64,000 bases of DNA from a virus (lineage: Duplodnaviria > Caudoviricetes). The DNA is taken from the IMG/VR virus record IMGVR_UViG_2582581306_000002, positions 15,726 through 79,725 of that record; one strand, given 5' to 3'. Under the pieces are notes generated by a model that worked only from the letters and a program-made list of their open reading frames with translations, had not been told where the DNA came from and made no database searches. Of the stretch, positions 4,034 to 36,711 are shown one piece after another. A program made the translations under genes and the position numbers. Position 1 is the first letter of the stretch. The number at the start of each line of letters is the position of its first letter.

Positions 4034-4054
4034 GATGTCGGCTCCGTTGGAACC

Positions 4055-4067
4055 GCACCTCATGCGC
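4055..4067 (-). promoter_or_regulatory. Late-leader motif GCGCATGAGGTGC (endolysin)
   Basis: One of six copies; 21 nt upstream of the ATG. Confidence 0.85.
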
Positions 4068-4102
4068 AGGAAGATGCCGTCTGAATATCACAACAAGCCT
4101 TA

Positions 4103-4131
4103 TTGCAACAATCCCGCATTTGTCGTATTTA
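4103..4131 (+). promoter_or_regulatory. Putative promoter TTGCAA-N17-TATTTA for the capsid operon
   Basis: Sigma70-like spacing directly upstream of the leader motif. Confidence 0.5.
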
Positions 4132-4140
4132 GAGGCAGTT

Positions 4141-4153
4141 GCGCATGACGTGC
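4141..4153 (+). promoter_or_regulatory. Late-leader motif GCGCATGACGTGC (major capsid)
   Basis: 28 nt upstream of ATG 4182. Confidence 0.85.
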
Positions 4154-4181
4154 TGATGTCCCTTCCAGGAGATTGGCCCAC

Positions 4182-5279
4182 ATGACCGCAACCACAATCG
4201 CATTTGGCGATCCCAAAGCCCAGAAAAAATGGTCTGGCTCCCTTTTCATCGACACCGTGAAGAAGTCCTACTGGGAACGCAAGTTCGTTTCCACGGATGA
4301 CAACGCTATCATCCAGCGTCTCACGGATCTGGAATCGGCTGCGGGCGACCGTATCTCCTTCGATCTCTCGGTGCAGCTGCGCCAGAAGCCGACGTCCGGT
4401 GACAACCGGCTGGAAGGCAAGGAAGAAGGCCTGAAGTTCTTCACGGACGAGGTCAACATCGACCAGCTCCGTCACGGTGTAAACACCGGCGGCAAGATGA
4501 GCCGGAAGCGCACCACGCACAATCTGCGCACCATCGGCCGCAACCGCCTCTCCGACTACTGGTCCAAGTACATCGACGAGCTGAATTTCATTTACCTCTC
4601 CGGTTCCCGCGGTATCAACCAGGACTATACCGAAGAAGTCACCTATGCCGGTCACGCCAGCAACCCCATCCAGGCGCCGGACACCGCGCATCTCGTCTAC
4701 GGCGGTGATGCGACGTCCAAGGCCTCGATCGACAGCACCGACACAATGTCGAAGGCAACGATCGAAAAGGCTGTGGTCAAGGGTCGCATGATGCGCTCGA
4801 CCGATCCGACCACGGCAAACATGCTGCCGGTCATGATCAACGGCGAGGCCCACTACGTCTGCGTCATGTCGCCGTTCCAGGAGCACTCCCTGCGCACCGC
4901 CGACACCACGGGCTGGTTGGAAATCCAGAAGGCCGCGATTACGGCCGAAGGCAAGGCGAACCCGATCTTCAAGGGCGGCCTCGGCATGATCAACAACTGC
5001 GTGCTTCACAGCCATGAAAGCGTGATCCGTTTCTCGGACTATGGCGCCGGTACCAACCTTCCAGCGGCTCGCGCACTGTTCATGGGCCGTCAGGCCGGTG
5101 TGGTCGCCTACGGTTCGTCCGGCGGCCTCCGCTTCACATGGACCGAAGAAGAGAAGGATCACGGCAACGAAAAGGTTATCGCTGCCGGCGTCATCATCGG
5201 TGTCAAGAAGTCCCGCTTCAACAGCAAGGATTTCGGCGTCACCGCCATCGACACCTATGCGGTCGATCCGAACGCCTAA
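4182..5279 (+). CDS. Major capsid protein, N4-gp56 family
   Basis: AGDRISFDL, LEGKEEGL, IDQLRHGV, RHNLR-like, NPIFKGGLG, KKSRF...DFGV motifs; strongly biased codon usage. Confidence 0.9.
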   Translation: MTATTIAFGDPKAQKKWSGSLFIDTVKKSYWERKFVSTDDNAIIQRLTDLESAAGDRISFDLSVQLRQKPTSGDNRLEGKEEGLKFFTDEVNIDQLRHGVNTGGKMSRKRTTHNLRTIGRNRLSDYWSKYIDELNFIYLSGSRGINQDYTEEVTYAGHASNPIQAPDTAHLVYGGDATSKASIDSTDTMSKATIEKAVVKGRMMRSTDPTTANMLPVMINGEAHYVCVMSPFQEHSLRTADTTGWLEIQKAAITAEGKANPIFKGGLGMINNCVLHSHESVIRFSDYGAGTNLPAARALFMGRQAGVVAYGSSGGLRFTWTEEEKDHGNEKVIAAGVIIGVKKSRFNSKDFGVTAIDTYAVDPNA

Positions 5280-5292
5280 TCCGTAGCAGGAC

Positions 5293-5321
5293 GGTCCCGC
5301 TCCGGCGGGGCCAATTCTTTT
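5293..5321 (+). terminator. Hairpin with U-tract after the capsid gene
   Basis: GGTCCCGC-TCCG-GCGGGGCC-AATTCTTTT. Confidence 0.55.
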
Positions 5322-5346
5322 CACCCCGCCGTTAGGAGACGTTTCC

Positions 5347-5808
5347 ATGGCACTCATTCAGAGCAAAACCGCACAGGGCATCATTGGCATCCCGATCCCG
5401 GGTTTCGCTGGCGACGCTATCGGGGTCCGCTTCTCGCACACCCTTCTCGCCAACCCGTCGATCAACGACATCCTCGAGCTCGGCTGCATCCCGGCTGGCT
5501 GCCGCGTCCTCGACATGGTCATCGACAGTGATGACCTCGACACCAACGGCGCCCCGACGATCGCTTACGATGTCGGCGTGATGTCTGGCGATCATGGCGT
5601 CAACGATGCGGCCCGTACCTGCGGCGCAGAGTTCTTCGCAGCATCCGCAGCCAGCCAGGCCGGCACAGTTGTCCGCCCCACCATCAAGACGGCGTTCCGT
5701 ACCGCCCCGACTGACAAAGATCGCTCGATCGGTGTGAAATTCACGGCCGCCGCCGCCACGTTTGCCTCCGGCACGATCGGCATGACCGTATTCTACGCTA
5801 CGGCCTGA
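5347..5808 (+). CDS. Virion structural protein (capsid decoration/cement-like)
   Basis: Directly follows the capsid gene; IPAGCRVLD..DDLDTNG beta-rich pattern. Confidence 0.7.
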   Translation: MALIQSKTAQGIIGIPIPGFAGDAIGVRFSHTLLANPSINDILELGCIPAGCRVLDMVIDSDDLDTNGAPTIAYDVGVMSGDHGVNDAARTCGAEFFAASAASQAGTVVRPTIKTAFRTAPTDKDRSIGVKFTAAAATFASGTIGMTVFYATA

Positions 5809-5832
5809 TCCTCCTTCCCAGCACTGATCCGG

Positions 5833-5869
5833 CAAGGGGGCAATTTATCTTTGCCCCCTTGTTTTGTTT
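5833..5869 (+). terminator. Rho-independent terminator
   Basis: CAAGGGGGCAA-N7-TTGCCCCCTTG then TTTTGTTT. Confidence 0.75.
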
Positions 5870-5888
5870 AAACCGAGGAGCCCCTGTT

Positions 5889-6500: not shown

Positions 6501-6503
6501 TCC

Positions 6504-9125: not shown

Positions 9126-9134
9126 GATGTCCAC

Positions 9135-11662: not shown

Positions 11663-11675
11663 GCGCATGATGTGC
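11663..11675 (+). promoter_or_regulatory. Late-leader motif GCGCATGATGTGC (ejection protein)
   Basis: 22 nt upstream of ATG 11698. Confidence 0.85.
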
Positions 11676-11697
11676 GGGCCAGATTAAGGCTCGTGAA

Positions 11698-12855
11698 ATG
11701 GGTAAAGGTTCATCTTCGGCCCCATCGCCGGACCCTCAGATCGGAGAAGCCGCCTTAAAGCAAGCCGCCCTCGGTGAGGAGTGGCTGTCATTTGCCAAGG
11801 ATTCGTTCAAGGTCTCGACCGAGCGCCAGAAGCAGATTGATGCGACGACACAGAAAATCGTCGACCAGCAGTTTGGCGTCGCGAAAGATCAGGCGGCGTG
11901 GGCTAAAGAAGATCGGGATAGGTACTCCAAGACCTTCAAGCCCATCGAAGACGACTTCATCAAGGAAGCGACCAACTATGCGACGCCGGCCAAGCAGGCT
12001 GAGGCCGCAGCGGAGGCTCGGGCCGATGTTCAGACCGCTGCGGCCACTGCGCGCGCGACGGGCCAGCGCGAGGCGATGGCCATGGGCATCAATCCCAATT
12101 CGGGGAGGTTTGCCGGTGTACAGCGTTCGGGTGAGCTCGGTACGACGCTGGCCGAGGCCGGTGCGGCCAACAATGCGCGTACCGCTGTGCGCGACAAAGG
12201 CCTCGCCCTTAAAGCCGATGTTTCCAATCTCGGGAAAGGGTTGCCGGCACAATCCGCTCAGGCGGCCGCTCTCGGTCTCAACGCCGGAAATTCCGTCACC
12301 GGCAATATCAATGCCGCCAACGGACAATACCTCGCATCGACCGGTATCATGGGGCAAGGATATTCCGGCGCCCAGCAGGGCTACGCCAGTCAGGCGAATA
12401 TTTTACAGAACCAGTACAACAGCCAGCTTCGCGCCTGGGAGGTGGAGCAGAACAGCGCGAACGCTGGCGCTGCTGGCATCGGTTCTGCGCTGGGCAGCAT
12501 CGCCGGCATGTTTCGGTTCACGTCCGATGAGAACGAGAAGGAAAACAAGCGCGCCCTCGCCGACGGCGAAGCGTTGGATGCCGTCAACAATATGCCTGTT
12601 GAGGAATGGGATTATAAGGAGGGGTCCGGCGACGGCGGGCGCCATGTAGGTACCTACGCTGCGGAGTTCGCCCGAGAGGTCGGGGGTGATGGCAAATCCA
12701 TCGATGTCATCTCTGCACTCGGCGTCTCAATGGGCGCAATCAAGGATCTCAGCTCGAAGGTGGATAAGATCGCCCAGCAGGTCGGGCTTGGTGGCCGAAA
12801 GCCTGCAAACAGCAACAGTGACAGAGCATATGGCCTGTCCGCAGGGAGGGCGTAG
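11698..12855 (+). CDS. Internal virion/DNA ejection protein with a C-terminal peptidase S74-like domain
   Basis: MGKG..AP..DP start; A/G/Q-rich helices; SDENEKEN...W.YK...HVG..A motif. Confidence 0.75.
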   Translation: MGKGSSSAPSPDPQIGEAALKQAALGEEWLSFAKDSFKVSTERQKQIDATTQKIVDQQFGVAKDQAAWAKEDRDRYSKTFKPIEDDFIKEATNYATPAKQAEAAAEARADVQTAAATARATGQREAMAMGINPNSGRFAGVQRSGELGTTLAEAGAANNARTAVRDKGLALKADVSNLGKGLPAQSAQAAALGLNAGNSVTGNINAANGQYLASTGIMGQGYSGAQQGYASQANILQNQYNSQLRAWEVEQNSANAGAAGIGSALGSIAGMFRFTSDENEKENKRALADGEALDAVNNMPVEEWDYKEGSGDGGRHVGTYAAEFAREVGGDGKSIDVISALGVSMGAIKDLSSKVDKIAQQVGLGGRKPANSNSDRAYGLSAGRA

Positions 12856-23300: not shown

Positions 23301-26300
23301 ACCTGACGGATAGCCTTCAGGATGCGGTCCCATGCCGCCCGCAACGCGGTGTGCGGCTTGATCGTCGATACGCCGGTAGCGTAGGCCGCAAAGGCTTCTG
23401 CCTCGACCTCGTGAGCCGTCATCTTCGCTGCCTGCTTCTCACGGCCGATCCGCTGCTGCACCATGCGTCGCAGACGGCCAATTTCGGCCTTGAGGACAGC
23501 TTTCTCGGCATTTGACAGGAAGAGGTGCTGCAGGCGGTGGAAAGCCTCATGGTAGGCGTTCGTGGCGCTCGCCGTGTTTTCAGCGATGGCAATGACGTCC
23601 TGCCCGGGCGAGTAGAAGCCGCCGGCCGTCGTCGGCGTCGTCGTACCCCATGCTGCGGCGCCGTTCGGGAGGTCGATGCGCTTCATCCACATCACATCGT
23701 TGAGGCCAGCGACCTTGCGGACGATGTCATTCACAGCTTGGATGTCAGCGGGGGAGCCGAGCCCTGTATCAGTGGAAGTATCGACATCTCCCCAGCCCAT
23801 TGGGGCCGCGGCTTTGCGCTTTGGTGAGACAATTTTGACCCGGCTATCGTCGTAGATCACGTAATTGTAGGTGCCATCTCCAGCATCGCGAGACGCGCCG
23901 TCGAGGAAACGGTGACCCGGGATGCCTGCCGCGCGCAATGCTTCGGAAGCCGCCTTGTCGGAGCCACGTTCCTTAACGAGGCTTTCATAATAATCCTGAA
24001 AGGTTTGATCGAGGTTTAACCTGCCGGACAGCGCATTATTGAACTTTTCGCGAATACCTTCGAGCGTGGCACGCTGAGCCGGAGTGAGCTCGTACACAAG
24101 ATCAAATTCTTCGTCTATGCCGAGGTCATCGCGAATGTAACGCTCTCCATGCTGTTGCCCTATTATATTGCCGGCAAGCGTGGAAAACCTTCTGATATCC
24201 GCTTTGGATGCCTTCCGAGCACCGGCTGGTGCCAACTTCTGAAGTATTTTCCGCACGCCCTCCGGCTGGTCCGAAATATCACCATCCCACCATGCAAGTT
24301 CGCTATCCTCGGGAACATCGACCTCGAAAAGCTGCCCACCTCCCTCATGTTTGAGGTTTGCGCTTTTCAGCCAATCCCGTCCGCCCTCGTAGAATGCCTT
24401 CATTCGGCCGGTGTCTGTTGCTGCAAACTGTTCGAGCTGCTCGATTGCCTCTGCAACACTCAGAACACCCAAGAGAGCATCCGTCCCGGCCTTCTCCTCG
24501 TTGGTCATTTTGGAGCGATCCAACGTTTTCACGTCGACGCCGTTGAGAAGGAAGCGACTGTTCCGGGTCAACATACGCCTATAATGGTTCGCGACCTCCT
24601 TCTTGCCCGCAAAATAGAGGCCCCAACCGAACGACTGGTTGCCTTCGCCGGTACCAATCATCTCAGTGCTGAACTCATCGAAGTCTGAGCCTGTGCCATG
24701 GTAGGCCGCCTGAAACTCCGCATCTTCGGGCGGCTTTACATTCTCGGCAGCATCAACGTCTGCCGCAGACGACATGCCGTCGAAGGCGGTGGCACGGGGA
24801 TCGTATTTCACGCCCATGTACCAGGACTTCAAATAGGGCCGCGCGACGTCGCCGAGATCGGCCAGCATAGCCGTGGCAAATGCCGCGAAGGTGCGGGCGC
24901 CCTTTTCGATGTGATAACCGGCCAGCGTGACACCGGCCTGCAGGATTTCGGGATCGATGCCGCTGTTCAGCGTCGAGCCGGATAGTTTCTTGCGGAGCAG
25001 CGCGCGCGCCTTCTCCGCAGCGTCTTCGGTGAAAACGGTGTTTTCTGTCACCGGAAGTTTCTGCTTCGCTGGTGGCTTGGACGTCCGTGCCTCATGCTTC
25101 GCCTTCATGTCCGCGAGCGATTCCTTGAACTCCTTGCGGATCGCGTCGGCGAGCTGCTTGCCCTTGAGGACGATCCGGCGCTTGCCATCGTCCTTGTCGA
25201 GGATGAACGTGATGGCTGGCCCGGGGCGGGTCTCCACCATGTATTTGTTGCCACCGGCACCACCGGTACCGAATTTCTTCTCGACGAGCTCCAGCAGCTC
25301 CTTATCCTGCATTCCGGCTTTGACGGCTGCCGCGATGTCGTCATCGCCGCCATTGGTCTGGGTAAGGCGGCCAAGTGCATCGGAAATCGCATCATCTTCA
25401 CTGCCCCAGACATCGTCCCAGGGATGATCGTCGGCGTTGAAGGCGCGCTTGACCTCTGGAACCGGCGTCTGCTCGACGGTCGCCGCCTTTACCGACGGCG
25501 TGGCGTTAGTACCGCGCTTTCCTCCGACATCCCCGTTCCGAGGCGATAGTGAATCGTCGATGGGCACAGACCGACCTGTTCCGCCCATGCTGTCAGGGTC
25601 TTGGTCTCCCCCCCGATCGTCATCATGTGGTTTTTCCGCATGTTGTGGGCTTGCTCCTTCTTTGTCGCCCAACGAAGGTTCCCCGGCTCGTAGTTTCCCT
25701 CGTTGTCTATCCGGTCCAGCTGATGTTTCGGTGTCGGCCTGTCCCCGACGATTTCCAGAAAGGTCGAGAACCTGCTCATCCTCGGATCTAGGGCGATCCC
25801 CCGCCCCCCGTAGTTGTGGTAGTACGGGCTCTTCGGGTTTTGCGTCCGGTCCAATATGTTGAGCCACGTCTTGTACAGGGGATGCCTGCTCAGTCCGTGA
25901 TATTCTCGCTGCCCCCTGGGGCGAGCGTGTTGCCTTGTCATCTTTGAGGAGTACCTTCAGGTCCTGGACCGACATCTCAGTGATGTCGCCCATGCGGCGC
26001 GAAGCGGAGGCATCGGAAAAGCCCCGGCTGTAAATATCGACCGCGTCCGCACGATCTGATGCGCCAAGTATAACCTTCAACTCGTCGAAACGTCCAGTGT
26101 CCGGGTCGATCTGATCGACAACAAACGCAGGGTTCTCGTCGGAGATATCCGATGTTCCGGCTTTCACGTACAGATCGACATGATCGCCATCGGCACCGGT
26201 GGTTCCCCTGAAATATCCGTAGTGCGCCGGCATCGTAACCGACCACGGTTTACCGTCTGGGCCTGTTCCCTTACGCTCCGAACCAACCGGATTTTCAATC

Positions 26301-29300
26301 GAAATATCCAGCCCACCCAGCCGAATGTGGCCCTTTTTGTAATTTCCTTCTTTTTGCTGTGCTTCCGTCGGCTCTGGAAGATCATTCAGTGGAGATGTCG
26401 CTGCAGCATGCGCCTCGGTGTCGACATTGGAGATCGCGTTAGCCGGTACCAAGGCGTTCAGTTTCTTCCTGACCCCGCCGGAATGACCGGCCCAATCCAG
26501 CTTTTCAGACCGTTTGATGCCGGCGGTATCGAGCACGACGCGACGCTCGTCCGGCGACATCGCATCCCACCAGACCTGCGCCTCGTCGATCGGCGCCACT
26601 GGTTCGTCTATTGCGCCGCTGCGACGGTGCTCCGACTGCCACTCCTTCAGGCGCTTGTCGTTGACCGGCGGCATCTTGATCGCCAGTTTCGACCGGGCTT
26701 CCTTGGCGGCGCGCTCGACGCGGTACCGGAAGTCATCACTGAGCTGACCCAGTGCCTGCGAATCGATCTCGAACTCCTTGGCGAGCAGCCGCTGTTCCGC
26801 CGGCAGCGCCTCGTCCATGCCGAGTTGGCTGGTCCCCATGATCCGCTTGCTGGTCAGACGCTCCTTGCCGAGGTCGTAGAGGCGGGCATGCAAGGCGTCG
26901 GGCATGGACACCGTTTTGTCACCGAGACGGCGATCGGTGCCGGTCAGCACAGGCGTTTCCCGCTCGACCGGCGGATTGCGCTTCAACTCCTGCTCTTCGA
27001 CCTGCTTCGCATTGAGCTTGCTGACAAACAGCGCCGCGGCGGGCACCTGGTAGGATTGGCCTGCATCGTTGGTCACGAGGACCTCGGTCGCGCCTTCCTC
27101 GTAGGAACCGACCTTGGCCGAAAACCTGCCGAGCTCCGGCGTATCGACGATGACGCGCTGACCCGGCTGCGGTGCCGACGGCAGTTTCTCAAGCGCAGGC
27201 ATCTGCTCGCTACGTGGCGGCAATTCGCTGGTGATTTCACCGGCAACGGGCTCCTGCGGGCGCAGTGCCTCATCGTCCGAGGATTCGGGCAAAGCGTCGC
27301 GCGTCGGCAGCAACGAGCCCGACGGTGGTTTCGCGATCTCGGTCAACTGGCCCAGCGGGATCTGGTAGACCTCGCCGCTTCCGCTATCGACGACGACGGC
27401 CTCGTCGCCCTCGTAGCCTTCGACGGTCGCCATGAAGGGCTCGACACCGTCGGCATCGACGCGCACCGTGGCACCTTGAGCCGGACGGATGCCGCTCGAA
27501 GCTGCCGCAGCTGCTGCGACCTGCGCGCCGATACCATGCTCCTGCTGCTGCCGGACCGCTTGCGTTTCGCCGTGTTCCAGCGCTCGCGCAAGCGGCCCAG
27601 CCCGCCTTGCCCCCGCAGGCGGTGCCTGTTGGGTCGCTGGTGAAGCGACCTGTTCGTCGATTTCGTTGCTGATCTCGGCAGAGGCTGGGCTGATTGCCCC
27701 ACCAGCACCACCCAGCCCGCCGCCCATGGCTGCGCCGGCAGCGAGCCCGCCCGCAGCTGCCTCCGCGACACCCTCGGTTAGATTTTGGCTTGGATCGACC
27801 GTCTGCACGGCCGCGTTTTCAGCGACCTTCTGCGATGCACTCTGTGGGAGTTCTTCGAGGATGCCCTCACCGGCCGCACCGCGACCGGCTCCAACCAGAA
27901 GACGTTTCGCGACGGTACCGCCGACGCCTTCCGCAATAATCTTGGCGAGAGCACGGTCACCAAGACCGCCGAATGCGCCGGTTGTTACACCGGCTACCAA
28001 AAAAGCTTGCGAGGCGGCGTCATCTGTTATCGAGGCAATAGCTTCGTCCGGCGACATTCCCTGAGAAATAAGTGCCTTGACGGAATCAGCCTCCAACAAC
28101 TGATCGCGAGGTATCTCCGCGATACGATCGCGTACTTCTATCGCTGACTGTCCCCCTCCAAGGCCGCCCTCACCGACGGCGCCAGCGACAAGCGCTGTCT
28201 TCGCGGCTGTTGCAGCTGCGGCCTTCTCGCCCAGGCCACCCACGATCGCTGCGGTGTAGGCACCCCGCGCCAAAAGCGCGCTTGGCCCCATCGTGGCCAG
28301 CGTGCTCGGTGCAGATTCGGCTATCGCGCCGAGGTAACTGTCAGGATCCGACCATGCAGGTCCAAGCGTACCCTTCTCGCTGTCCCACCACGTCTTGTTG
28401 TAGCTGACTTTGCCGGCCTCGGTGACAGATGCTCGGGCTGTCGTCGCGTAGTCACGGAGCCGCTGTTCAACAGGTTTTCCCGTTACCCACTCATCCACAG
28501 CGTCCAGACCGCCGACGATCGATGGACCGACCTTGGGTATCATTCCCACAACAGCGCGCACCGTTCGGCCCAGATCTGCGTTCCCGGCACCAACCTTTCG
28601 GGCGAGGTCACCACCGCGACCAGTCGATCGGTTCTCTTTTTCCCATTCTGCCTTCCACGCCTCGTATTCCACCTCGGACATGGTGAGGTATTTTCCAGGC
28701 TCACGTGTATCTAGGGCTGCATGGGTCTCTTCTATCAGCTGATTTTCAGCAGCGACGCCTGCCCCAGCACCACCGGCGGCAGACCGAGCCTTTGCAGCCG
28801 CCTCGGCCTCTTTCACCGACTTGAAGCGCTCGAACGTCTGTCCGTTCGCCTGCTCATAGGCCTGCATTGTGCGAAGGATGTTGTCCTCGTCGCCGGCGTC
28901 GAACTGCACTGGCCCCTTTGGACCCATCCACAACGATGGGACGTTGACCCACTCGCCGCTTGGGAGCTGCCACGTGGTGGAAATCTCGGTCGAATAGCTG
29001 CCGTCCGCGTTCGGGCGCTGCTCGTCTGGCCTGAACGGTCGCAACTGGGCAGTAGATGCAGCCATTTCCTTGAACGGATTGGCCTCACCGTACAGTTTCA
29101 TGTCGTCTTTCGGCTGGAAGTCGCCGGAGACAGGGATACCGCCCTTTTCGGCGTTCGTCGTGCCTTCCGCCTGCGCGACTGCCTGCGGAGCCCCTCCTGC
29201 CGCGACATCCTGAAACCAGCGCGGAGCCTTGTTCATGTTCCTGTTGGTCTTGTCGTGCATGAACCAGGTGGAACCGTCTCCCTTCTGGTCCTTCAGATCG

Positions 29301-30406
29301 ACGTGCAGCATGTCCGGTGAATCGGTATAGGTGATGAACCGCTTCGCACCGCGCGCGCGGAGATCCTGCACCAGTGCGGCCCGCTCCTGGTCGGACATGC
29401 CCTTCATGGAGATGTCGGACGCATCGCCGCGCGAATGTTCACCGGGGCCACCGGCCTTGGCAGCCTCAACACGGTGCTGCGGCGACCGGAAGCCGGAAAG
29501 CACGGTTAGATCGCGACCGAGCGCTTTGGACGAATCGACCAGGATGCTTTCGAACGCCGGCGCCAGCTTGTTCTGCTCCGGATGGCTGAAAAACAGTTTC
29601 CCGCCACTGCCGGCCGGCGCTTCCTCTTCGGGCCGCACCAGACGGGCAAGACCTTTCGCTGAAGGATTCGGCACATAGCTGCTCGACTGGTCAGTTGCCG
29701 CCGCACGCGCCGCTGTCTCCTTGTCCACCGCCGCAAACGGGTCTTTGCCACCATAGAGCCCGAGGCCATCCTTGACCTCGAACCCCTCGCCGATCGTCAC
29801 GCCGCCCGCCGGCGCCGCAGCTTCCTGCCGCTTACCCGTGGACGAATAGTAGGTATGGCCGCCGATCTTCGTGGTCACCGGCATGGTCTTGGCCCAATCC
29901 GGCGACACATAGCCGGCATGGAAGTGATCAGCACCGCCGGTCGGGTCTTGCAGCGTGCCATCAAACACGCCCTGCACGATCTTCTCCGCCTCGCTGCGGA
30001 TCATGGGATTGCGCTGCGCTTCCCGGGAACCCTCACGCGGGTTTTCATAACCCTCGAACTGCGACGGCTGGCGAACAACATCTGCTGGCGAGATACCGCG
30101 AGCTGCTGCCCGGTTCTTGATGACAGACGCGACGCCCACCATGCCCTGGGGACCGTCACCGGCCGCCTCGGCGATGACGGTATCCACCATGTCGTTCCAA
30201 TCCTTCGCGTCGAACGACGTGTTCTTGTTCACGACGCGGGATGGGAGCTCTTGTGTGTTGGTGCCAGGTGTCTGGGTGTTGACCGCGCGCGTCGTGCTCT
30301 CGGCAGGCTTCGGGTTCAGCCCGCCACCGCCATAGAGGCCGAGCGGGTCTTTGAACTCAGAAGCGTCCTTGGAATTGCCGAGACCGATGACAATGGGGGG
30401 GGGCAT
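20393..30406 (-). CDS. Giant polyvalent virion/injected protein (3337 aa)
   Basis: Recognisable segments: SleB-type cell-wall hydrolase, M15 peptidase (SGFRS..H...D...HVD), inorganic-pyrophosphatase-like (GNYKKGH...HYGY...DGDHVD), ART-like (YHGT...GWGLYF), zincin HEAFH, PLxRFG (YFPLGRFG). Confidence 0.9.
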   Translation of the reverse strand: MPPPIVIGLGNSKDASEFKDPLGLYGGGGLNPKPAESTTRAVNTQTPGTNTQELPSRVVNKNTSFDAKDWNDMVDTVIAEAAGDGPQGMVGVASVIKNRAAARGISPADVVRQPSQFEGYENPREGSREAQRNPMIRSEAEKIVQGVFDGTLQDPTGGADHFHAGYVSPDWAKTMPVTTKIGGHTYYSSTGKRQEAAAPAGGVTIGEGFEVKDGLGLYGGKDPFAAVDKETAARAAATDQSSSYVPNPSAKGLARLVRPEEEAPAGSGGKLFFSHPEQNKLAPAFESILVDSSKALGRDLTVLSGFRSPQHRVEAAKAGGPGEHSRGDASDISMKGMSDQERAALVQDLRARGAKRFITYTDSPDMLHVDLKDQKGDGSTWFMHDKTNRNMNKAPRWFQDVAAGGAPQAVAQAEGTTNAEKGGIPVSGDFQPKDDMKLYGEANPFKEMAASTAQLRPFRPDEQRPNADGSYSTEISTTWQLPSGEWVNVPSLWMGPKGPVQFDAGDEDNILRTMQAYEQANGQTFERFKSVKEAEAAAKARSAAGGAGAGVAAENQLIEETHAALDTREPGKYLTMSEVEYEAWKAEWEKENRSTGRGGDLARKVGAGNADLGRTVRAVVGMIPKVGPSIVGGLDAVDEWVTGKPVEQRLRDYATTARASVTEAGKVSYNKTWWDSEKGTLGPAWSDPDSYLGAIAESAPSTLATMGPSALLARGAYTAAIVGGLGEKAAAATAAKTALVAGAVGEGGLGGGQSAIEVRDRIAEIPRDQLLEADSVKALISQGMSPDEAIASITDDAASQAFLVAGVTTGAFGGLGDRALAKIIAEGVGGTVAKRLLVGAGRGAAGEGILEELPQSASQKVAENAAVQTVDPSQNLTEGVAEAAAGGLAAGAAMGGGLGGAGGAISPASAEISNEIDEQVASPATQQAPPAGARRAGPLARALEHGETQAVRQQQEHGIGAQVAAAAAASSGIRPAQGATVRVDADGVEPFMATVEGYEGDEAVVVDSGSGEVYQIPLGQLTEIAKPPSGSLLPTRDALPESSDDEALRPQEPVAGEITSELPPRSEQMPALEKLPSAPQPGQRVIVDTPELGRFSAKVGSYEEGATEVLVTNDAGQSYQVPAAALFVSKLNAKQVEEQELKRNPPVERETPVLTGTDRRLGDKTVSMPDALHARLYDLGKERLTSKRIMGTSQLGMDEALPAEQRLLAKEFEIDSQALGQLSDDFRYRVERAAKEARSKLAIKMPPVNDKRLKEWQSEHRRSGAIDEPVAPIDEAQVWWDAMSPDERRVVLDTAGIKRSEKLDWAGHSGGVRKKLNALVPANAISNVDTEAHAAATSPLNDLPEPTEAQQKEGNYKKGHIRLGGLDISIENPVGSERKGTGPDGKPWSVTMPAHYGYFRGTTGADGDHVDLYVKAGTSDISDENPAFVVDQIDPDTGRFDELKVILGASDRADAVDIYSRGFSDASASRRMGDITEMSVQDLKVLLKDDKATRSPQGAARISRTEQASPVQDVAQHIGPDAKPEEPVLPQLRGAGDRPRSEDEQVLDLSGNRRGQADTETSAGPDRQRGKLRAGEPSLGDKEGASPQHAEKPHDDDRGGDQDPDSMGGTGRSVPIDDSLSPRNGDVGGKRGTNATPSVKAATVEQTPVPEVKRAFNADDHPWDDVWGSEDDAISDALGRLTQTNGGDDDIAAAVKAGMQDKELLELVEKKFGTGGAGGNKYMVETRPGPAITFILDKDDGKRRIVLKGKQLADAIRKEFKESLADMKAKHEARTSKPPAKQKLPVTENTVFTEDAAEKARALLRKKLSGSTLNSGIDPEILQAGVTLAGYHIEKGARTFAAFATAMLADLGDVARPYLKSWYMGVKYDPRATAFDGMSSAADVDAAENVKPPEDAEFQAAYHGTGSDFDEFSTEMIGTGEGNQSFGWGLYFAGKKEVANHYRRMLTRNSRFLLNGVDVKTLDRSKMTNEEKAGTDALLGVLSVAEAIEQLEQFAATDTGRMKAFYEGGRDWLKSANLKHEGGGQLFEVDVPEDSELAWWDGDISDQPEGVRKILQKLAPAGARKASKADIRRFSTLAGNIIGQQHGERYIRDDLGIDEEFDLVYELTPAQRATLEGIREKFNNALSGRLNLDQTFQDYYESLVKERGSDKAASEALRAAGIPGHRFLDGASRDAGDGTYNYVIYDDSRVKIVSPKRKAAAPMGWGDVDTSTDTGLGSPADIQAVNDIVRKVAGLNDVMWMKRIDLPNGAAAWGTTTPTTAGGFYSPGQDVIAIAENTASATNAYHEAFHRLQHLFLSNAEKAVLKAEIGRLRRMVQQRIGREKQAAKMTAHEVEAEAFAAYATGVSTIKPHTALRAAWDRILKAIRQVQNFLQGRGFQTAEDVFDRAKSGAIAQRTPVSKPKVEATQFSIAEDSDRLIPTPGAIASALSGKLTDIQPAMLKTIPLNYFPELARPNMTAVGDYLRVKRLLDTYRGKKHEKAGEVVEQWRKVISTGYLGKDKSRAAQISSLMHDATLAGVDPSLTDAETIAKTGYDALRKQYLALPVKARELFSTVRDTYRQQAEELDQLLLDNVRKAQQIALDRAEADYQKNIADLDKKNLTAKTRKAKEAELATQYKEQKTRAQWTMKARMTKMRIAFENSRVPAPYFPLGRFGRYFVAVRDVDGETLYFSKHETAHERDQTATRVQKAYPAGTVKVGVTENSSELRQAMDPRIVAEIETLLGDAGAAPELQDAIWQRYLESMPELSARKRFIHRKGTAGYHEDAMRVFANALFHGAHQMGKIKYGLELQELTNKAKDQAEEADDQTRAMTLANELAKRHDWVMNPTGSEWAQWMTSVAFVYYLAASPAAAMVNLTQTVMLGVPILGAKYGGVAKSSAALLRASKDFVVSKGRLMGSSTTDDEKRAMEAFYESGLIDRTQSYDLAGAGQNGINQTSIRAKTMKVISWAFQQAEVVNRSVTALAAYRMARAAGRTEPDAIDAAHELTLKTHFDYSNSSRPAIMQNDFAKVALVFRQYQINYLYRVFRDIHQSLKGESAAVRKEARYQLAGVVGMMSLLAGVTGTIGFNLVMALASAIFGDDDDPMDFEQQFRKSVQDILGPELGGIVLNGAPGHYLGIDLTSRIGMPDLWFRSPSRDLQGKSEYEYWALQSLGASVSMIGQFWQGFSVIKDEGNVARGLEVAAPKFIRDLLKTYRYAQEGVTSARGDEILPANQIDYHDLVAQFLGFTPAKVAETWDRNISLKNAEQAILDKRRMLMNRFAMAVTMKDDEARKEAIADIKKFNAVPVNGPLAITAETLKRSLKTRARNAAKREDGVLIGNPALGKSLREKLPDPIYR
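25489..25941 (-). CDS. HNH-family endonuclease-like gene nested in the +1 frame of the giant gene
   Basis: HG....PLY.TW..I..R.......Y.NYGGRGI...LDRIDNEGNYEPGNLRWAT..EQ..N, plus a C-terminal TLTAWAE..G...TI..RL HTH. Confidence 0.85.
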   Translation of the reverse strand: MTRQHARPRGQREYHGLSRHPLYKTWLNILDRTQNPKSPYYHNYGGRGIALDPRMSRFSTFLEIVGDRPTPKHQLDRIDNEGNYEPGNLRWATKKEQAHNMRKNHMMTIGGETKTLTAWAEQVGLCPSTIHYRLGTGMSEESAVLTPRRR

Positions 30407-30431
30407 TTATGGCGGCTCCTGAGAAGAAGCC

Positions 30432-30444
30432 GCACGTCATGCGC
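30432..30444 (-). promoter_or_regulatory. Late-leader motif GCGCATGACGTGC (giant gene)
   Basis: 25 nt upstream of the ATG; preceded by TTCCAA-N17-TATAAC. Confidence 0.85.
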
Positions 30445-30741
30445 GGTCGATGCGCAGTTATAGAATGAGCGGGAGCGATTTGGAAGCGCACGCCTTTGAA
30501 CGATGTCAAATACGTGATGGTAACGTTAAAATTAACGATTGGTGCGCCGCTCGGCTCCGCCTATAGTGAGGGCAGGTCAGGGAAACGGAGTGCTGATAAC
30601 ACATCGATACCGTCCCCTGACCTTGGCGCTATGCCCGCAGTTGGCGAGAGGTGGATGCAACCATCTCTCGCCGATTTGCTTGCTTAACATTATGCAGGCA
30701 TTCCGACTGCGGCGCAAATGATATCATTGCCATTACATCGT

Positions 30742-30779
30742 GTGAAAAAGTGAAAGAGCCCGCCGTTGCTGACGGGCTC
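30742..30779 (-). terminator. Rho-independent terminator
   Basis: GAGCCCGTC-AGCAAC-GGCGGGCTC-TTTCACTTTTT on the minus strand. Confidence 0.75.
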
Positions 30780-31015: not shown

Positions 31016-31018
31016 CTG

Positions 31019-31090: not shown

Positions 31091-31092
31091 CG

Positions 31093-31801: not shown

Positions 31802-31896
31802 TTTGGGGCTCCTGTCACTGCCTCTGCCCTCGATCGAGCACAGGAAGAGACAGAAGCGGACCGGCGGGTCCGCTTCCATTGCAGTCCACTAAGGCG

Positions 31897-32208: not shown

Positions 32209-32231
32209 GCGAAAGCCTTTCTGTATGGGAA

Positions 32232-32308
32232 TGGTTGCGGGGGTAGGATTTGAACCTACGACCTTCAGGTTATGAGCCTGATGAGCTACCGAACTGCTCC
32301 ACCCCACG
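32232..32308 (-). tRNA. tRNA-fMet (CAT), initiator
   Basis: 77-nt cloverleaf; C1:A72 mismatch; TCAGG-CTCATAA-CCTGA anticodon arm; GTTCAAAT T-loop; encoded CCA. Confidence 0.95.
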
Positions 32309-32346
32309 CACTGACCAGAATTCCACCGAGCGTTTTTGTCAACACG

Positions 32347-34305
32347 TCAGGTGATGAAGCACGCAGACACGAGAAACCGCTTGTCCGTCCCGGCCGATGA
32401 CGGAAAGTCAGTGATCTGAAGATCGGTTGTCGTCACCCCAGACCCCATTGCCTTGAAATTGAAGCGGTCCGCGCTTGGCCCGATACGAGGCACAAATTGC
32501 GTAAACCCGGCCTTCGTCAATCCGGCGAACTCGAACGATCCTGATATCTGCTGCATGTCGGGAAACCCGCTTTCCGGCATACCTTCCATGCGGACTGCCC
32601 CGGTCGCAGTGCTGTATTCAAGCTTGCCGATCCATTCAGCGGTGACAAACACCAGCCTGCCAACGCGGATTATGTATCCTTTAGGCGTCCCCGTTGGTGT
32701 GAGCGCCAAATCCCCCAGCACCGCGCAGCTGATCGTTGGTGTCCAAAGCGTTACGGTATTCGCCCCTTCCGCCAGATCGAGAAGCGCCACGCTTTCAGCC
32801 GCCAACGCAAGAAGAGGCACGCGCTCCGCCACCAATTCGGCCTTCGGCGCATTGATCAGCGCCGCAACGTCAACGCTTATCGTTCGCACTGCGGCCGCCC
32901 GTATCGCGGTTTCCTTGCCGTAGGCCATCAGGGCTTTGCCGCTGTCCGGATTGATGAACAGCGACGGGTAGCCCGAGCTATCTAACAGTTCAGGGACCAG
33001 CGATATCTCAGAGCCCCAATTCGTGGGAGCTGCGAGAGCAAGGGCTGCCGTGGTCCAGCGGGCGCAGATCGCGTCCGGTGTGGGTGGCGGGCTACTCAGA
33101 ACACTGCGAGCCATGTAGGTCATGAAGACGTAACGCACGCCGTCAACATCGATCACGTTCAGTTCATGCGACTGATAGCCGCCTGATGCGGGCAGGTTCG
33201 TTTCGGCCGGCACGGACCACGTCACGCCGCGGTCGGAAGTCTTCGCTGTGCGCATGCCGCTCACAGCAGCATCGACGCGAAGCAATGTGAGCCAGTTGTT
33301 TTCGTCAATGATCGCTATCGCCTGCTCAGAGAGCCCAGGCGATGCAGAAGTGGCGATAAGGTGCGCCGTCCAGCTCGTCCCTTGCCAGTCGTCAGAGACC
33401 ACGACGTAATTGTCATTGCCGGTGTATATGCTTGCGACCTGATCGCCAGACGGCAGGATCTTGATTTGCCCGTACCAGGCTATTGCTACGCTGGGCAGTC
33501 CAGATATGGCCATGACCTGCAACGGCGTCCAATCATCCTTGCCGGTGAGCGACGTGGTCTGATACCTCGTACGAGCGCCCGTGGTAACATCGAGGGTCGA
33601 GAAGATCGCGATCAGCGAGCCATCCTTGCGCCGCCCGAGCGCTGGATAGTAGAAAATCGTCTGCCCGTCCGTCATGCCGTCGCCCAGGATCACCTCGTTG
33701 GGGAACGTCGCGCCGCCGTTTTCGCTCCATGCGTAGACGATATCAGCGGCGATGCGGAGGAGACCAACAGTAACCGCGCCGGCCGGATTGCCATCGACCG
33801 TCACCGATGTAATCGAATTCGGATCAATGCTGCCGACCAGAGTGACCGTCGAAGCGTTGCCGCCAGCTCCACTGCGAACGACAGGCACGCCGTTGAGAGT
33901 GCCGGTCACCGTGAAGATACGGCCCGTGTCATTTCCGGCAGACGTGACTGTTACCTCAGTCGCACGCAGGACGCCCGTCACGACGCCAGCAGTCGTCTCG
34001 TTGCCGTTGATGACAAGAGACTGCACGCCGCCCGCCGCTGGCGTCTGTGAGGCGCAGATGGCCGCCGTGTCGGATTGCCCGTGATTGCGCCCGCGATGGT
34101 ACAGCACGCCGACCACATCGAAGCCAGCGGCCAGAACCGGGAAATGTGAATACAGCCCGTCATCGACCAGCGCCGCAGCGGCCGGCACTTGTGGCCATTC
34201 ACGTTGCCGCTGCACGGCGACGTCTGCGGCCCGCCCTTGTTCCTGTGTGGCGAAGTAGCTTGTGGGTTTCTGAGTGTTGCTTGCGCCGTTATAGAGCCCC
34301 TGCAT
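32347..34305 (-). CDS. Putative tail spike with a sialidase-like BNR beta-propeller
   Basis: Asp-boxes WSENGGATF and TSDRGVTW; HFP, SEQ, GYP motifs; C-terminal fibre-like domain; TGATG coupling. Confidence 0.7.
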   Translation of the reverse strand: MQGLYNGASNTQKPTSYFATQEQGRAADVAVQRQREWPQVPAAAALVDDGLYSHFPVLAAGFDVVGVLYHRGRNHGQSDTAAICASQTPAAGGVQSLVINGNETTAGVVTGVLRATEVTVTSAGNDTGRIFTVTGTLNGVPVVRSGAGGNASTVTLVGSIDPNSITSVTVDGNPAGAVTVGLLRIAADIVYAWSENGGATFPNEVILGDGMTDGQTIFYYPALGRRKDGSLIAIFSTLDVTTGARTRYQTTSLTGKDDWTPLQVMAISGLPSVAIAWYGQIKILPSGDQVASIYTGNDNYVVVSDDWQGTSWTAHLIATSASPGLSEQAIAIIDENNWLTLLRVDAAVSGMRTAKTSDRGVTWSVPAETNLPASGGYQSHELNVIDVDGVRYVFMTYMARSVLSSPPPTPDAICARWTTAALALAAPTNWGSEISLVPELLDSSGYPSLFINPDSGKALMAYGKETAIRAAAVRTISVDVAALINAPKAELVAERVPLLALAAESVALLDLAEGANTVTLWTPTISCAVLGDLALTPTGTPKGYIIRVGRLVFVTAEWIGKLEYSTATGAVRMEGMPESGFPDMQQISGSFEFAGLTKAGFTQFVPRIGPSADRFNFKAMGSGVTTTDLQITDFPSSAGTDKRFLVSACFIT

Positions 34306-34619
34306 CACGCTGGCTCCCATGCCAGGCGGTCGCCGGGTTGGGAGAAATAGTCGACCGTCTCCTCCCGTGGCAGGAACATCCGGGGGCTGACACTGGAATC
34401 GGGGTCCTGCTTGATGGAGATCCAGGCATCGACACTGGATCTGACGCGGAAGATAGGCTGTCCGTGAACGTCGCCTTCCCTTGGCGCTTCGCTGGCGGTT
34501 TCGCCGGCTACCTCAAGGGTCTCCGACCACACCCGCTTTATCATCAGCGGCTGGATCGAATCCTTGTAACCGCGAGCGCCGGCAAATCCGACAACGACGT
34601 GAAGGCCAACAAGAGGCAT
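34305..34619 (-). CDS. Small structural adaptor (paralog of 36361-36678)
   Basis: GLHV..GFAG.RG..DSIQ....KRVWSET. Confidence 0.75.
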   Translation of the reverse strand: MPLVGLHVVVGFAGARGYKDSIQPLMIKRVWSETLEVAGETASEAPREGDVHGQPIFRVRSSVDAWISIKQDPDSSVSPRMFLPREETVDYFSQPGDRLAWEPA

Positions 34620-34639
34620 GTGCTATCTCCGAAGGGACA

Positions 34640-34652
34640 GCACATCATGCGC
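34640..34652 (-). promoter_or_regulatory. Late-leader motif GCGCATGATGTGC
   Basis: 20 nt upstream of the ATG; preceded by TAGCAA-N17-TAATGT. Confidence 0.85.
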
Positions 34653-34730
34653 GGGAACAGGCGGACATTAGCGCGGTTCCGGGGATTTTGCTAGACGTCG
34701 CATCCCCGCAGATGATCTAGGGGCGCGGGG

Positions 34731-36182
34731 TTATGCTAGCGCCAAGAAAGCATTGGCGATCGGCGGCGCAAGCACTGACGCCAGCATGTCCATGCCAGTC
34801 TGGCCGGGATGTGTTCCATCCGTTGAAGTGTAGCCAGACCCGCCGCCTGTCAGGGTATATGCACCCGTTGCACGGAAGTCATAGAAGGCTACGCGACTGG
34901 TATCGGATACAGCGGCATATCCAGCCGCAATAGCTGTCGTGCAAGCATTGGATGATGTCGTGTCCGCATATGGGCTTATCCCGACGATGCGAACCTTCGG
35001 CAAAGCGGACAGCAAATCATTGAGACGTGCTGTCACCTCGGCGGTCAACCCTGCCGCGCCCTCTCCTGCGACAATTGAAGCCCACTGAAACATATCGTTG
35101 ATGCCGAGCGCAAGAACGAGCATGTCTGGCGCCTGCGCGATGATCGATGCGATCTCGGCAGAAAAGAGGCTCGATCCTCTGATGAAGCCTTGCCCACTCG
35201 TGCCATACTGAACGAACCTCTCTTGCAGCCCGAGCATATAGGCCGATTGGCGGGTCCAGTTTCCGAACGCGTAGGAGCCATGAAGATTTTCGATGAAGCT
35301 GTCGCCGGCCATCATCAACTTGGCTTTGTCCGTGTTTTCGGGCCAGGGCAGGACGCTGACACCGCCGCCCACATTCAAGCCTGCGAACTTTGTTCCGAAC
35401 CCGAGGATCAGCTCGACGGTGCGCATTCTCTTGGTAGTGTGAAGCTTGCCGAGAGCCACCGTAAATGTCGCGCCGGTACCAGACCCCGACGTTGATCCTT
35501 GTGACATCGTCGCGGCCGAAGCGGAATAGACGCCCAGACGGCAGATCGCAACAGATGCAACAGCACTGCCGCTGAGCGATGTCACGCGGACCTGCGCAGC
35601 GGTCGTAAATGCACCCCCGGCCAGCGTGATGATCTCACCAAGGGCATAACCAGTGCCGCCGGCAAGGACCACCGCATTCGCAAGCTCGTAGCTCAGCGTG
35701 TCCGCGCCAAATTCATAGAGAACGAAGTGCTCGGTGTCGTTGTTCATTCCTGGGCTATCGACAGAGAAGCGGCCTTTGGAGACCGGCTTGCCGTCAATCA
35801 GCACCGTGTGCTGGCTTTGCCCGAGATAGGACTTCAATTTCAGATCGAAGGTTCCGTCAACGAGCCAGCGATACCTGACGCCAGCTTTGGTGCCGGCCTT
35901 GTAGCCGCTGCTGTCAACAAATGCGCCACCGAGTTTTGTCAGGCGTGTATCGTCACGACCGACACCAACGGAGGTGTTCCCGCTGATTGTGCTGTTGCCG
36001 CCGGCAGCTCCGGACGTCACGACCGGCGGGGACGCCATCACATCGGGGAAAGCGCCGAAACCGTTCAAGCCCAGCTTCCATCGGTGGAACTTCGACAGGC
36101 CGACATATGCCGCCCGCTCGACGGAGATATCGCCGCCGCTGAGGACTGGCGCCACATCGGCAGCAGCAACGTAATTTGGCAT
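34731..36182 (-). CDS. Putative tail spike with an SGNH/GDSL esterase domain
   Basis: GDSF, GTSG, GIND, DGTHP catalytic blocks; GGTGY..G repeat. Confidence 0.8.
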   Translation of the reverse strand: MPNYVAAADVAPVLSGGDISVERAAYVGLSKFHRWKLGLNGFGAFPDVMASPPVVTSGAAGGNSTISGNTSVGVGRDDTRLTKLGGAFVDSSGYKAGTKAGVRYRWLVDGTFDLKLKSYLGQSQHTVLIDGKPVSKGRFSVDSPGMNNDTEHFVLYEFGADTLSYELANAVVLAGGTGYALGEIITLAGGAFTTAAQVRVTSLSGSAVASVAICRLGVYSASAATMSQGSTSGSGTGATFTVALGKLHTTKRMRTVELILGFGTKFAGLNVGGGVSVLPWPENTDKAKLMMAGDSFIENLHGSYAFGNWTRQSAYMLGLQERFVQYGTSGQGFIRGSSLFSAEIASIIAQAPDMLVLALGINDMFQWASIVAGEGAAGLTAEVTARLNDLLSALPKVRIVGISPYADTTSSNACTTAIAAGYAAVSDTSRVAFYDFRATGAYTLTGGGSGYTSTDGTHPGQTGMDMLASVLAPPIANAFLALA

Positions 36183-36364
36183 TATGCAGCCCTCGCTGTG
36201 AATATCGCGCCGTTGTCACGGCTGACCAGTGGTTGATTGTTGGTTCTGCTGACGAGAGCGTTCGGGGGCACCCCCGCGCCCGCTAAACGGTTGGCATCGA
36301 GCCCGACCATGTCGATGCGCTTTGGGAGGTTGATCGCAAACGTCGCAAGCAACCCGGCCATCAC
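36182..36364 (-). CDS. Small hypothetical protein
   Basis: Overlaps both neighbours (translational coupling). Confidence 0.6.
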   Translation of the reverse strand: MMAGLLATFAINLPKRIDMVGLDANRLAGAGVPPNALVSRTNNQPLVSRDNGAIFTARAA

Positions 36365-36678
36365 GGCACCAGGATGAACGCGACCTTATCGCCCGGCTCG
36401 CACGGCTCGTCGAGGCGTTCGCCTGCCCGGATCAGGATGCGGGGATTTGCCGCCGCATTCGGGTTGGCACCGATCGCGATGTAGGAATCGGCCTGGGCGC
36501 TGATACGCAGGATCATCTGGCCGGAGCCCTGACCGCTCTGCGGCGCGGAGCCGACCGTCGTGCCTGGTGCTGCCACCGTTTCCGACCAGACGCGCTTTTG
36601 AAGGATGGATTGGATGGTGTCGTTGGCGCCGCGCACGCCGGCGAACCCGGCTTCGACGTGAATACCTGCAAAGGCCAT
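36361..36678 (-). CDS. Small structural adaptor (paralog of 34305-34619)
   Basis: GIHV..GFAG.RG..DTIQ....KRVWSET. Confidence 0.75.
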   Translation of the reverse strand: MAFAGIHVEAGFAGVRGANDTIQSILQKRVWSETVAAPGTTVGSAPQSGQGSGQMILRISAQADSYIAIGANPNAAANPRILIRAGERLDEPCEPGDKVAFILVP

Positions 36679-36698
36679 GTGCTCTCTCCGAAAAGACA

Positions 36699-36711
36699 GC
36701 ACATCATGCGC
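36699..36711 (-). promoter_or_regulatory. Late-leader motif GCGCATGATGTGC
   Basis: 20 nt upstream of the ATG; preceded by TGGTAA-N17-TAATGT. Confidence 0.85.

Follow-up and report, generated by a model that had tools for sequence, protein, structure and literature searches.

A conserved leader box in late messages of PBC5/Bcep22/PEp14-like podophages is a putative RNA operator of a phage-encoded CsrA-like protein

We analysed 64,000 nucleotides (nt), here called the window, of the IMG/VR provirus record IMGVR_UViG_2582581306_000002 (79,725 bases in total), and investigated a 13-nt box, GCGCATGANGTGC, that precedes six late genes or gene cassettes, together with a gene for a small CsrA-like protein that is a candidate to recognise it. 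The capsid protein of the window phage is 60-73% identical to the capsids of Sinorhizobium phage PBC5, Agrobacterium Atu_ph08, Ochrobactrum POI1126, Erwinia PEp14, Serratia Parlo, Ralstonia GP4-like phages and Burkholderia Bcep22, approximately 30% identical to those of Stx phages and some Vibrio phages, and 26% identical to that of F116. Judged by these capsid relatives, the phage is a member of the PBC5/Bcep22/PEp14-like podophage lineage. The genes concerned are as follows (aa, amino acids; ORF, open reading frame).

3497-4033, minus strand: endolysin gene (phrog_5867, E 1.9e-42), a proposed regulated target
4182-5279, plus strand: major head protein (capsid) gene (phrog_334, E 1.1e-127), a proposed regulated target
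11698-12855, plus strand: virion structural ("ejection") protein gene (phrog_8003, E 3.1e-144), a proposed regulated target
20393-30406, minus strand: gene for a giant DarB-like protein of 3337 aa (phrog_10089), a proposed regulated target
32347-34619, minus strand: spike cassette 1, a 104-aa ORF (34305-34619) and then a 657-aa ORF (32347-34320)
34731-36678, minus strand: spike cassette 2, a 105-aa ORF (36361-36678) and then a 483-aa ORF (34731-36182)
37649-37873, minus strand: gene for a divergent CsrA-like protein of 74 aa (PF02599, 22 bits), the candidate trans factor, without a box

The two spike cassettes are paralogous, each consisting of a small ORF followed by the spike, and the first ORFs of both gave no family match. 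The CsrA-like gene lies 22 nt after a 322-aa gene that follows the portal gene. The boxes and their leaders are located as follows, with z being the score of the leader's minimum free energy (MFE) against shuffled sequences and the distance being that from the box end to the ATG.

4055-4067, minus strand: box GCGCAUGAGGUGC of the endolysin leader (4031-4067; AUG at 4033; distance 21 nt; MFE -15.2 kcal/mol, z -2.42)
4141-4153, plus strand: box GCGCAUGACGUGC of the capsid leader (4141-4184; AUG at 4182; distance 28 nt; z -0.86, the weakest of the six)
11663-11675, plus strand: box of the virion structural protein leader (11663-11700; AUG at 11698; distance 22 nt; z -1.57)
30432-30444, minus strand: box of the giant-protein leader (30404-30444; AUG at 30406; distance 25 nt; z -2.28)
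34640-34652, minus strand: box of the spike cassette 1 leader (34617-34652; AUG at 34619; distance 20 nt; z -3.62)
36699-36711, minus strand: box of the spike cassette 2 leader (36676-36711; AUG at 36678; distance 20 nt; z -3.05)

A preliminary description of this DNA had placed the 13-mer at these six positions, always in sense orientation and 20-28 nt before the ATG of a late gene. Our search reproduced all of this exactly: six copies were found in the window compared with 0.04 expected from 100 dinucleotide shuffles, none of which reached six, and all six were in sense orientation relative to the downstream gene. The whole provirus record contained the same six copies and none further, while the reversed pattern used as a control gave no match. 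With up to two mismatches allowed, 14 matches were found against 13.3 expected, so the box has no halo of degenerate copies. The preliminary description had also extended the proposed switch to the whole late regulon, which was too broad, because the portal, terminase and CsrA-like genes have no box of their own.

We then assessed the occurrence of the box in relatives of the window phage. A strict regular expression applied to 80 related viral loci and the window gave 106 distinct box contexts, almost all of them situated within some tens of nt upstream of the ATG of the capsid gene, the endolysin gene, the gene of a virion protein beginning "MGKGSS" or a gene whose product begins "MPAIKL". 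The pattern GCGCADGA(N)GTGY was present in one to five copies in 30 of 33 near-complete relatives (reversed control, 0-2), and the remaining three, which form a Ralstonia clade, carry ACGCAGGAGTGT before the capsid gene. PBC5 has the box, mostly in the 12-mer form GCGCATGAGTGC/T, in front of its genes for endolysin, capsid, gp19 and the DarB-like gp22. The box is thus a family feature of Bcep22/PEp14/PBC5-like podophages.

A box that was common throughout the host genome had been named in the preliminary description as a finding that would speak against its proposal. In five Rhizobiales genomes with related prophages, we found the box to be rare outside the prophages. The degenerate pattern was scattered, with 11-27 matches per 4-6.5 Mb compared with 5-17 when the pattern was reversed. 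One host genome, of 6.4 Mb, has a prophage with a 97% identical capsid; here, five of nine GCGCATGANGTGC sites lay within 37 kb of the prophage and four elsewhere; three other genomes had phage-type box clusters of 4, 4 and 5 sites in the prophage, and the fifth had no such cluster, its capsid leader carrying the variant loop AUCAA. The clustering of phage-type variants in prophages indicates that the box is not a common host word.

The surroundings of the box suggest that it is transcribed. Hexamers resembling a -10 element, including TATAAG, TATAAC, GATAAT and GATATT, precede the box in 69 of 95 distinct contexts, ending 4-20 nt upstream of it, compared with 338 of 2000 random positions, and fuller promoter-like matches were found at 25 of the 95 contexts compared with 39 of the 2000 random positions. 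Given this spacing, the box probably lies within roughly the first 20 nt of the late mRNAs. One candidate promoter region lies between the endolysin and capsid leaders.

4103-4131, no strand assigned: putative divergent promoter core of the endolysin and capsid leaders, read from the sequence and not flagged by a strict sigma-70 scan

Within the spacer at 4068-4140, the palindromic TTGCAA at 4103-4108 is a possible shared -35 element for both strands, serving endolysin and capsid, and TATTTA at 4126-4131 is a possible -10 element for the capsid gene. The spacer sequence TTGCAACAATCC is conserved in many relatives, and the TTGCAA/TATTTA core may be regarded as a putative divergent promoter for the two genes. 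Upstream of the giant-protein gene, a terminator-like hairpin (30779-30756, within 30718-30779 on the minus strand) stands before TTCACA-17-TATCAT, which is the best sigma-70-like match in this region, has 10 of 12 consensus positions and TG, and lies about 270 nt upstream of the giant-protein box. The transcript of the giant gene may therefore start well before the box.

We next examined the folding of the leaders. The preliminary description had listed stems that cover the Shine-Dalgarno sequence in each leader, and all of them recurred in the MFE folds of the six leaders. It had missed that the CAUG(A) part of the box often pairs with the start codon itself. In the endolysin leader, box positions 4-8 are paired with the AUG region; in the leader of spike cassette 1, AUGUGCU is paired with AGCACAU, the latter covering part of the AUG. 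The giant-protein leader has a 9-bp inner hairpin, GCGGCUUCU/AGGAGCCGC, that contains the Shine-Dalgarno sequence, and when the virion-protein leader was cut at the AUG, its MFE fold consisted of a small hairpin in the box plus an inner hairpin. The capsid and virion-protein leaders are individually unremarkable compared with shuffled sequences.

We then assessed whether each box is complementary to its own start region. An alignment-free permutation was used for this purpose rather than a global MAFFT alignment of 47 capsid leaders, in which the gap between 12-mers and 13-mers was misplaced and the ends of some rows were faulty. Start codons were set by rule as the first ATG opening at least 70 codons. 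From 40 representative leaders, eight were dropped as intragenic or not bona fide matches of the relaxed regular expression and two for a doubtful start codon, leaving 30 non-redundant leaders. The results showed that the duplex between a box and its own start region had a mean energy of -12.58 kcal/mol, compared with -9.04 +/- 0.45 kcal/mol for permuted pairs, and none of 5000 permutations was as good. An energy of -9 kcal/mol or below was reached by 23 of the 30 own pairs, against 23% of pairs formed between the window boxes and 57 other start regions of the window, for which the mean was -6.96 kcal/mol. Indels and base changes in the arm were matched by the partner, as in the 13-mer pairs CAUGACGUG versus CACGUCAUG and the 12-mer pairs CAUGAGUG versus CACUCAUG, and further matched arm pairs in relatives include GGAGUGUG versus CACACUCC and GGACGC versus GCGUCC. 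This cognate-specific complementarity across relatives provides the strongest support for the earlier view of the box as an RNA feature of leaders with alternative folds.

The second fold, a competing small hairpin within the box, had likewise been proposed and is widespread. Here the box folds on itself with a GCGC/GUGC stem and a loop of 4-5 nt, for which the consensus is GCGC-A-N-G-A-(N)-GUGC. All six window boxes can form the 4-bp stem, and such a stem, closing an A-N-G(G)A-(N) loop, is present in 79 of 81 capsid leaders. Its sequence is almost invariant, 99% of cells being paired among 26 distinct 13-mer capsid leaders, and the variants ACGC/GUGU, CCGC/GUGG, GCGU/GCGC and GUGC/GCGC still pair. 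In distant clades the loop has the canonical form AUGGAN (AUGGAU or AUGGAC). A relaxed hairpin scan of all loci was too noisy and was not used. Two variants were also observed: a Ciceribacter prophage (locus L138, 2957-2975) has GCGC-AUCAA-GUGC, with the loop G replaced by C, and the capsid leader of a Roseinatronobacter contig (locus L144) has GGGC-AUGGAU-GUCC, with the second stem pair swapped. When the box was blocked or the small hairpin forced in silico, the mean unpaired probability of positions -15 to +3 rose from 0.24-0.41 to 0.48-0.62 in all six leaders.

The preliminary description had called for a protein that binds the box, and a candidate was found in the CsrA-like gene, which co-occurs with it. 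The 74-aa window protein matches PF02599 with an E value of 1.6e-4 and is the sole, weak CsrA match of the provirus. An exhaustive homolog search gave 45 relatives, and a family profile was built from 43 sequences (40 of those, the query and two closer homologs). Over profile positions 2-44, this profile matches nine distinct CsrA/RsmE sequences in the PDB with E values from 3.1e-07 to 1.1e-04, the top match being the RsmE-hcnA structure 2jpp. In addition, 30 of the 43 homologs match PF02599 at E <= 0.01, and an hhalign comparison with the CsrA of F116 gave a probability of 95% and an E value of 3.7e-08 over 36 columns. At the profile level, these matches identify the window protein as a homolog of CsrA/RsmE. 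CsrA proteins have a five-stranded fold and form an intertwined homodimer with a C-terminal helix. The AlphaFold2 (AF2) monomer model of the window protein has a predicted local distance difference test score of 85.7, with five strands, at residues 2-6, 11-14, 18-21, 30-34 and 40-43 and only a three-residue helical turn.

Among the 33 relatives, 32 have a CsrA-like gene: 28 were detected by Pfam, six of them above the cut-off, and four of the other five by the family profile. The gene immediately precedes a box-bearing leader in many relatives, either that of the capsid gene, as in PEp14, Parlo and G033, or another one. Four outgroups, Shigella phage 75/02 Stx, Vibrio D96a, Aeromonas phiARM81mr and Pseudomonas KPP25, lack both CsrA and the box. 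F116 encodes a canonical CsrA (79.4 bits) and carries three copies of GCGCAGGAGTGC. Two of these copies are followed after 25-26 nt by an ATG and show the same layout of box and inner hairpin. The other (locus L117, 10042-10053; AY625898.1, 33966-33977) ends just 3 nt short of the gene 49 ATG, so that the AGGAG of GCGCAGGAGTGC is the Shine-Dalgarno sequence of this gene, which would be a layout of classical CsrA repression.

The protein subtype also tracks the form of the box. In loci L088-L121, a long ...DGxIPxRFTxGITG C-terminus goes with 13-mers and the PBC5-type ...GPITI... with 12-mers, and the Ralstonia-type CsrA-like protein goes with AGGA 12-mers. This match is suggestive of co-evolution, is confounded by phylogeny, and was not used as evidence. 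In the five host genomes with related prophages, there was no CsrA match above the cut-off. At E <= 0.01, four of the five genomes had one sub-threshold match each and the fifth had none, and each of the four matches adjoins the prophage capsid gene or box cluster or is at most about 30 kb away from it. The absence of a host CsrA above the cut-off in these genomes suggests that the phages apparently bring the only CsrA-family protein of the cell.

Such genes have been annotated before. GP4, DC1, Bcep22, BcepIL02, BcepMigl, PEp14, Pavtok, Parlo and F116 are listed with CsrA homologs, with no function given in the available text (PMC7366521). In the portions available of three papers, phage "CsrA-like regulator" genes are annotated without a phage target or function, and a leader box is not mentioned (PMC7366521, PMC8310193, PMC12989515). 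These annotated genes belong to the same gene family and the same phage lineage as the 74-aa ORF of the window. A literature search that did not cover Gill et al. 2011 (PMC3187461) gave no paper in which the leader box or a phage target of these proteins is described, and the literature matches to the box word GCGCATGA were to primers only.

Taken together, we consider it probable that the box is an RNA operator of the phage CsrA-like protein. The fuller proposal, that the operator sits in a two-state leader and that binding activates translation, is the one we incline to, with some reserve. According to this model, the 12-13-nt box would lie in the 5' untranslated leader of the late mRNAs and take part in two mutually exclusive folds. 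In the closed fold, the 3' two-thirds of the box, CAUGA(N)GUGC, would pair just before or across the AUG, often enclosing an inner hairpin that contains the Shine-Dalgarno sequence. In the open fold, the box would form its own 4-bp GCGC/GUGC hairpin and present the loop A-N-G-A-(N). The CsrA-like protein, made from the box-free portal/scaffold operon, would bind the open hairpin or the single-stranded box and thereby remove the 5' arm of the closed stem, raising translation of the endolysin, capsid, virion-protein, giant-protein and spike messages. Binding may also stabilise the mRNA or protect its 5' end. With the regulator gene in a box-free operon, synthesis of capsid, virion proteins, spikes and endolysin would be delayed until that operon is expressed.

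Several results weigh against this model. With regard to the protein, its score lies below the Pfam gathering score (22 compared with 27 bits), for which reason it is filed as "CsrA-like" and not as CsrA. Its homology to CsrA is confined to residues 1-43 and the C-terminal part differs: after about residue 43 the family reads P-I-x-x-x-x-x-G-x-I-P-x-x-F-x-x-G-x-x-G, unlike CsrA, in which strand 5 and the start of the helix contact RNA, for example through R44 of E. coli CsrA, and no equivalent RNA-contact residue can be assigned. Foldseek searches with the AF2 monomer gave no match at E <= 0.001, and the best VIA-align Z score was 2.9, with no CsrA retrieved; because CsrA is an intertwined dimer, this is unsurprising for a monomer model, and the fold is to be taken as a predicted one. 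None of the six window loops (AUGAG once, AUGAC twice, AUGAU three times) has the GGA core of CsrA sites. The co-occurrence of box and CsrA-like gene is confounded by shared ancestry, and one relative, G019, has the box and no detectable CsrA-like gene.

With regard to the leaders, the strict sigma-70 consensus scan flagged no promoter directly upstream of the window boxes. The window capsid leader is no more stable than its shuffles, and in locus L122 (97% capsid identity), the closest relative of the window capsid leader, the CAC complement has disappeared. By itself the small hairpin has an energy of only -3.0 to -3.5 kcal/mol, compared with -15.7 to -19.5 kcal/mol for closed whole leaders, and such a weak structure would need a ligand to compete. 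The preliminary description had asked for covariation of the leaders: the pairing of the small hairpin held up across relatives, and the covariation support was weak, with one two-sided change in the 26 capsid leaders, equalled by 40 of 500 shuffles, so the fold is conserved and not covarying. Finally, with the box blocked, the inner hairpins still contain the Shine-Dalgarno sequence in the endolysin and giant-protein leaders.

The rival explanation that survives best keeps the same operator and protein and reverses the outcome: a CsrA-like dimer would contact the upstream hairpin with one face and the Shine-Dalgarno GGA with the other, as at classical CsrA targets, so that late synthesis would be limited or timed, possibly with relief by a protein antagonist. 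Five of the six window leaders have a GGAG Shine-Dalgarno sequence 16-21 nt after the box loop, the Shine-Dalgarno sequence of F116 gene 49 is itself one box copy, and repression is the commonest CsrA mode (PMC7652899). We nevertheless regard repression as unlikely, since the conserved, cognate-specific stem that closes the start would be redundant with a repressor and the capsid protein needs very high expression. Moreover, with no GGA in the window loops, it is uncertain whether the divergent protein would recognise the GGA of the Shine-Dalgarno sequence.

A purely cis-acting or host-factor element is improbable. In such a case, a 5'-terminal stem-loop would stabilise the late mRNAs or damp read-through translation, and the CsrA-like gene would merely be co-inherited. 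The moderate stability of the stems would suit this explanation, as would the confounding of the co-occurrence by phylogeny. However, a structural element needs no invariant 5'-arm sequence, and this one is common to six unrelated leaders and to phages of Rhizobiales, Burkholderia, Ralstonia, Erwinia and Pseudomonas; among the outgroups, the box was present in none of the four without CsrA and in the one with CsrA.

It is very improbable that another trans factor reads the box, either a phage small RNA pairing with the 5' arm (anti-antisense, like DsrA at rpoS) or an N/boxB-like antiterminator. The small GC-stem hairpin with its 4-5-nt purine-rich loop is reminiscent of boxB, but the leaders end at the AUG and not before a terminator, no antisense copy of the box occurs anywhere in the provirus, and neither a candidate small RNA nor an N-like gene emerged. 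The idea of a DNA element, by which a DNA-binding late regulator or a modified RNA polymerase would recognise the box as an operator or promoter-proximal site, draws on the adjoining -10-like hexamers and on the near-palindrome GCGCAT-G-ATGTGC formed when N is T, but it is scarcely credible given that all six copies are in sense orientation, that the distance to the -10-like hexamer varies from 4 to 20 nt, that the AUG-side partners change yet stay complementary, that the stems contain G-U pairs tolerated only in sense RNA, and that the provirus gave no match to the Sigma70_r2, Phage_antitermQ or Com families. In the 79.7-kb record, Com (PF10122), the Q antiterminator (PF06530) and sigma-70 region 2 (PF04542) had no match at E <= 1, other Q families not being included in this search.

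Returning to translational activation by the CsrA-like protein, a broader version is conceivable that we find rather doubtful as a whole. The master switch for most late proteins of Bcep22/PEp14/PBC5-like phages would then be translational and not transcriptional, with a CsrA-like protein of altered specificity (A-N-G-A) unlocking self-closed late mRNAs, even in hosts that lack CsrA. The position of the CsrA-like gene beside the scaffold and capsid genes in many relatives raises the possibility that an assembly protein titrates the regulator, which would form a checkpoint like FliW-CsrA-flagellin. CsrA-type control is itself known; what we propose as new is its use in the late regulon of a phage, through a leader that closes on itself and a loop without GGA. 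"CsrA-like regulator" genes have been annotated in phages for more than a decade, and the box on capsid, lysis, giant-protein and spike messages provides a concrete and testable set of targets. It points to post-transcriptional timing of late genes in widespread temperate and lytic podophages of plant and opportunistic pathogens, and may show how far the specificity of the CsrA family can drift from GGA. The arrangement also offers a compact protein-RNA switch for synthetic biology.

Other features of the window were observed alongside these genes. The giant protein has only a partial match, over residues 679-990, to a "virion RNA polymerase" PHROG, and megablast of its gene against phages gave no match. 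An N4-like phage with an N4-like virion RNA polymerase promoter was considered and rejected, as the giant protein is DarB-like and the capsid relatives are PBC5/Bcep22-like. A tRNA gene (32235-32308, minus strand; RF00005, 63.6 bits) separates spike cassette 1 from the giant-protein unit, and was the sole match of the window to Rfam at gathering thresholds. A perfect 7-bp palindrome, GTTGCATTAAATGCAAC (36789-36805), is found in the gap of 360 nt that precedes the leader of spike cassette 2. A gene for a GapR-like DNA-binding protein (46965-47342, minus strand; PF10073, E 2.9e-35) is part of an early/middle leftward operon and adjoins a PAPS-reductase-like gene (45901-46968, minus strand).

In comparison with known systems, phage Mu Com/mom is a case in which a late gene is activated translationally and a stem inhibits its translation. 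The proposal for the window is similar in that a small phage protein would bind 5' of or within an inhibitory stem and open a late-gene start. The preliminary description had drawn this analogy, which does not extend to the protein: the provirus has no Com zinc ribbon (PF10122), the candidate belongs to another family, and there are six targets instead of one.

Classical repression sites of CsrA/RsmE, such as glgC and hcnA, share with the window leaders a short GC stem and a purine-rich loop upstream of a GGA-containing Shine-Dalgarno sequence. The regulator is likewise small and, by profile, of the same family, CsrA/RsmE being a dimeric beta-strand protein, and distant relatives as well as F116 carry true (A)GGA loops. 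The layout of a CsrA-type operator, a short stem in the 5' leader near the ribosome-binding site, is present in the window, the box lying 20-28 nt before the ATG. Unlike the classical sites, the window box is conserved in its stem sequence and not just in its loop, and it doubles as the 5' arm of the stem that closes the start, which points to activation.

The closest mechanism appears to be CsrA-type control as at ymdA. According to a review (PMC7652899), ymdA, phz2 and moaA are activated by CsrA through prevention of a structure that sequesters the Shine-Dalgarno sequence, and the 5' end of flhDC mRNA is protected. The window system differs from these cases in that its protein is phage-encoded, divergent and below the cut-off, with a different C-terminus; its loop is A-N-G-A-(N) and not A-N-GGA-N, and one operator is found on six late messages of one phage. 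As in E. coli CsrA-ymdA, RsmA-phz2 and CsrA-moaA, however, a leader hairpin sequesters the ribosome-binding region and the site of the protein falls in the 5' arm or immediately ahead of it, and binding is likewise proposed to prevent the hairpin and admit the ribosome.

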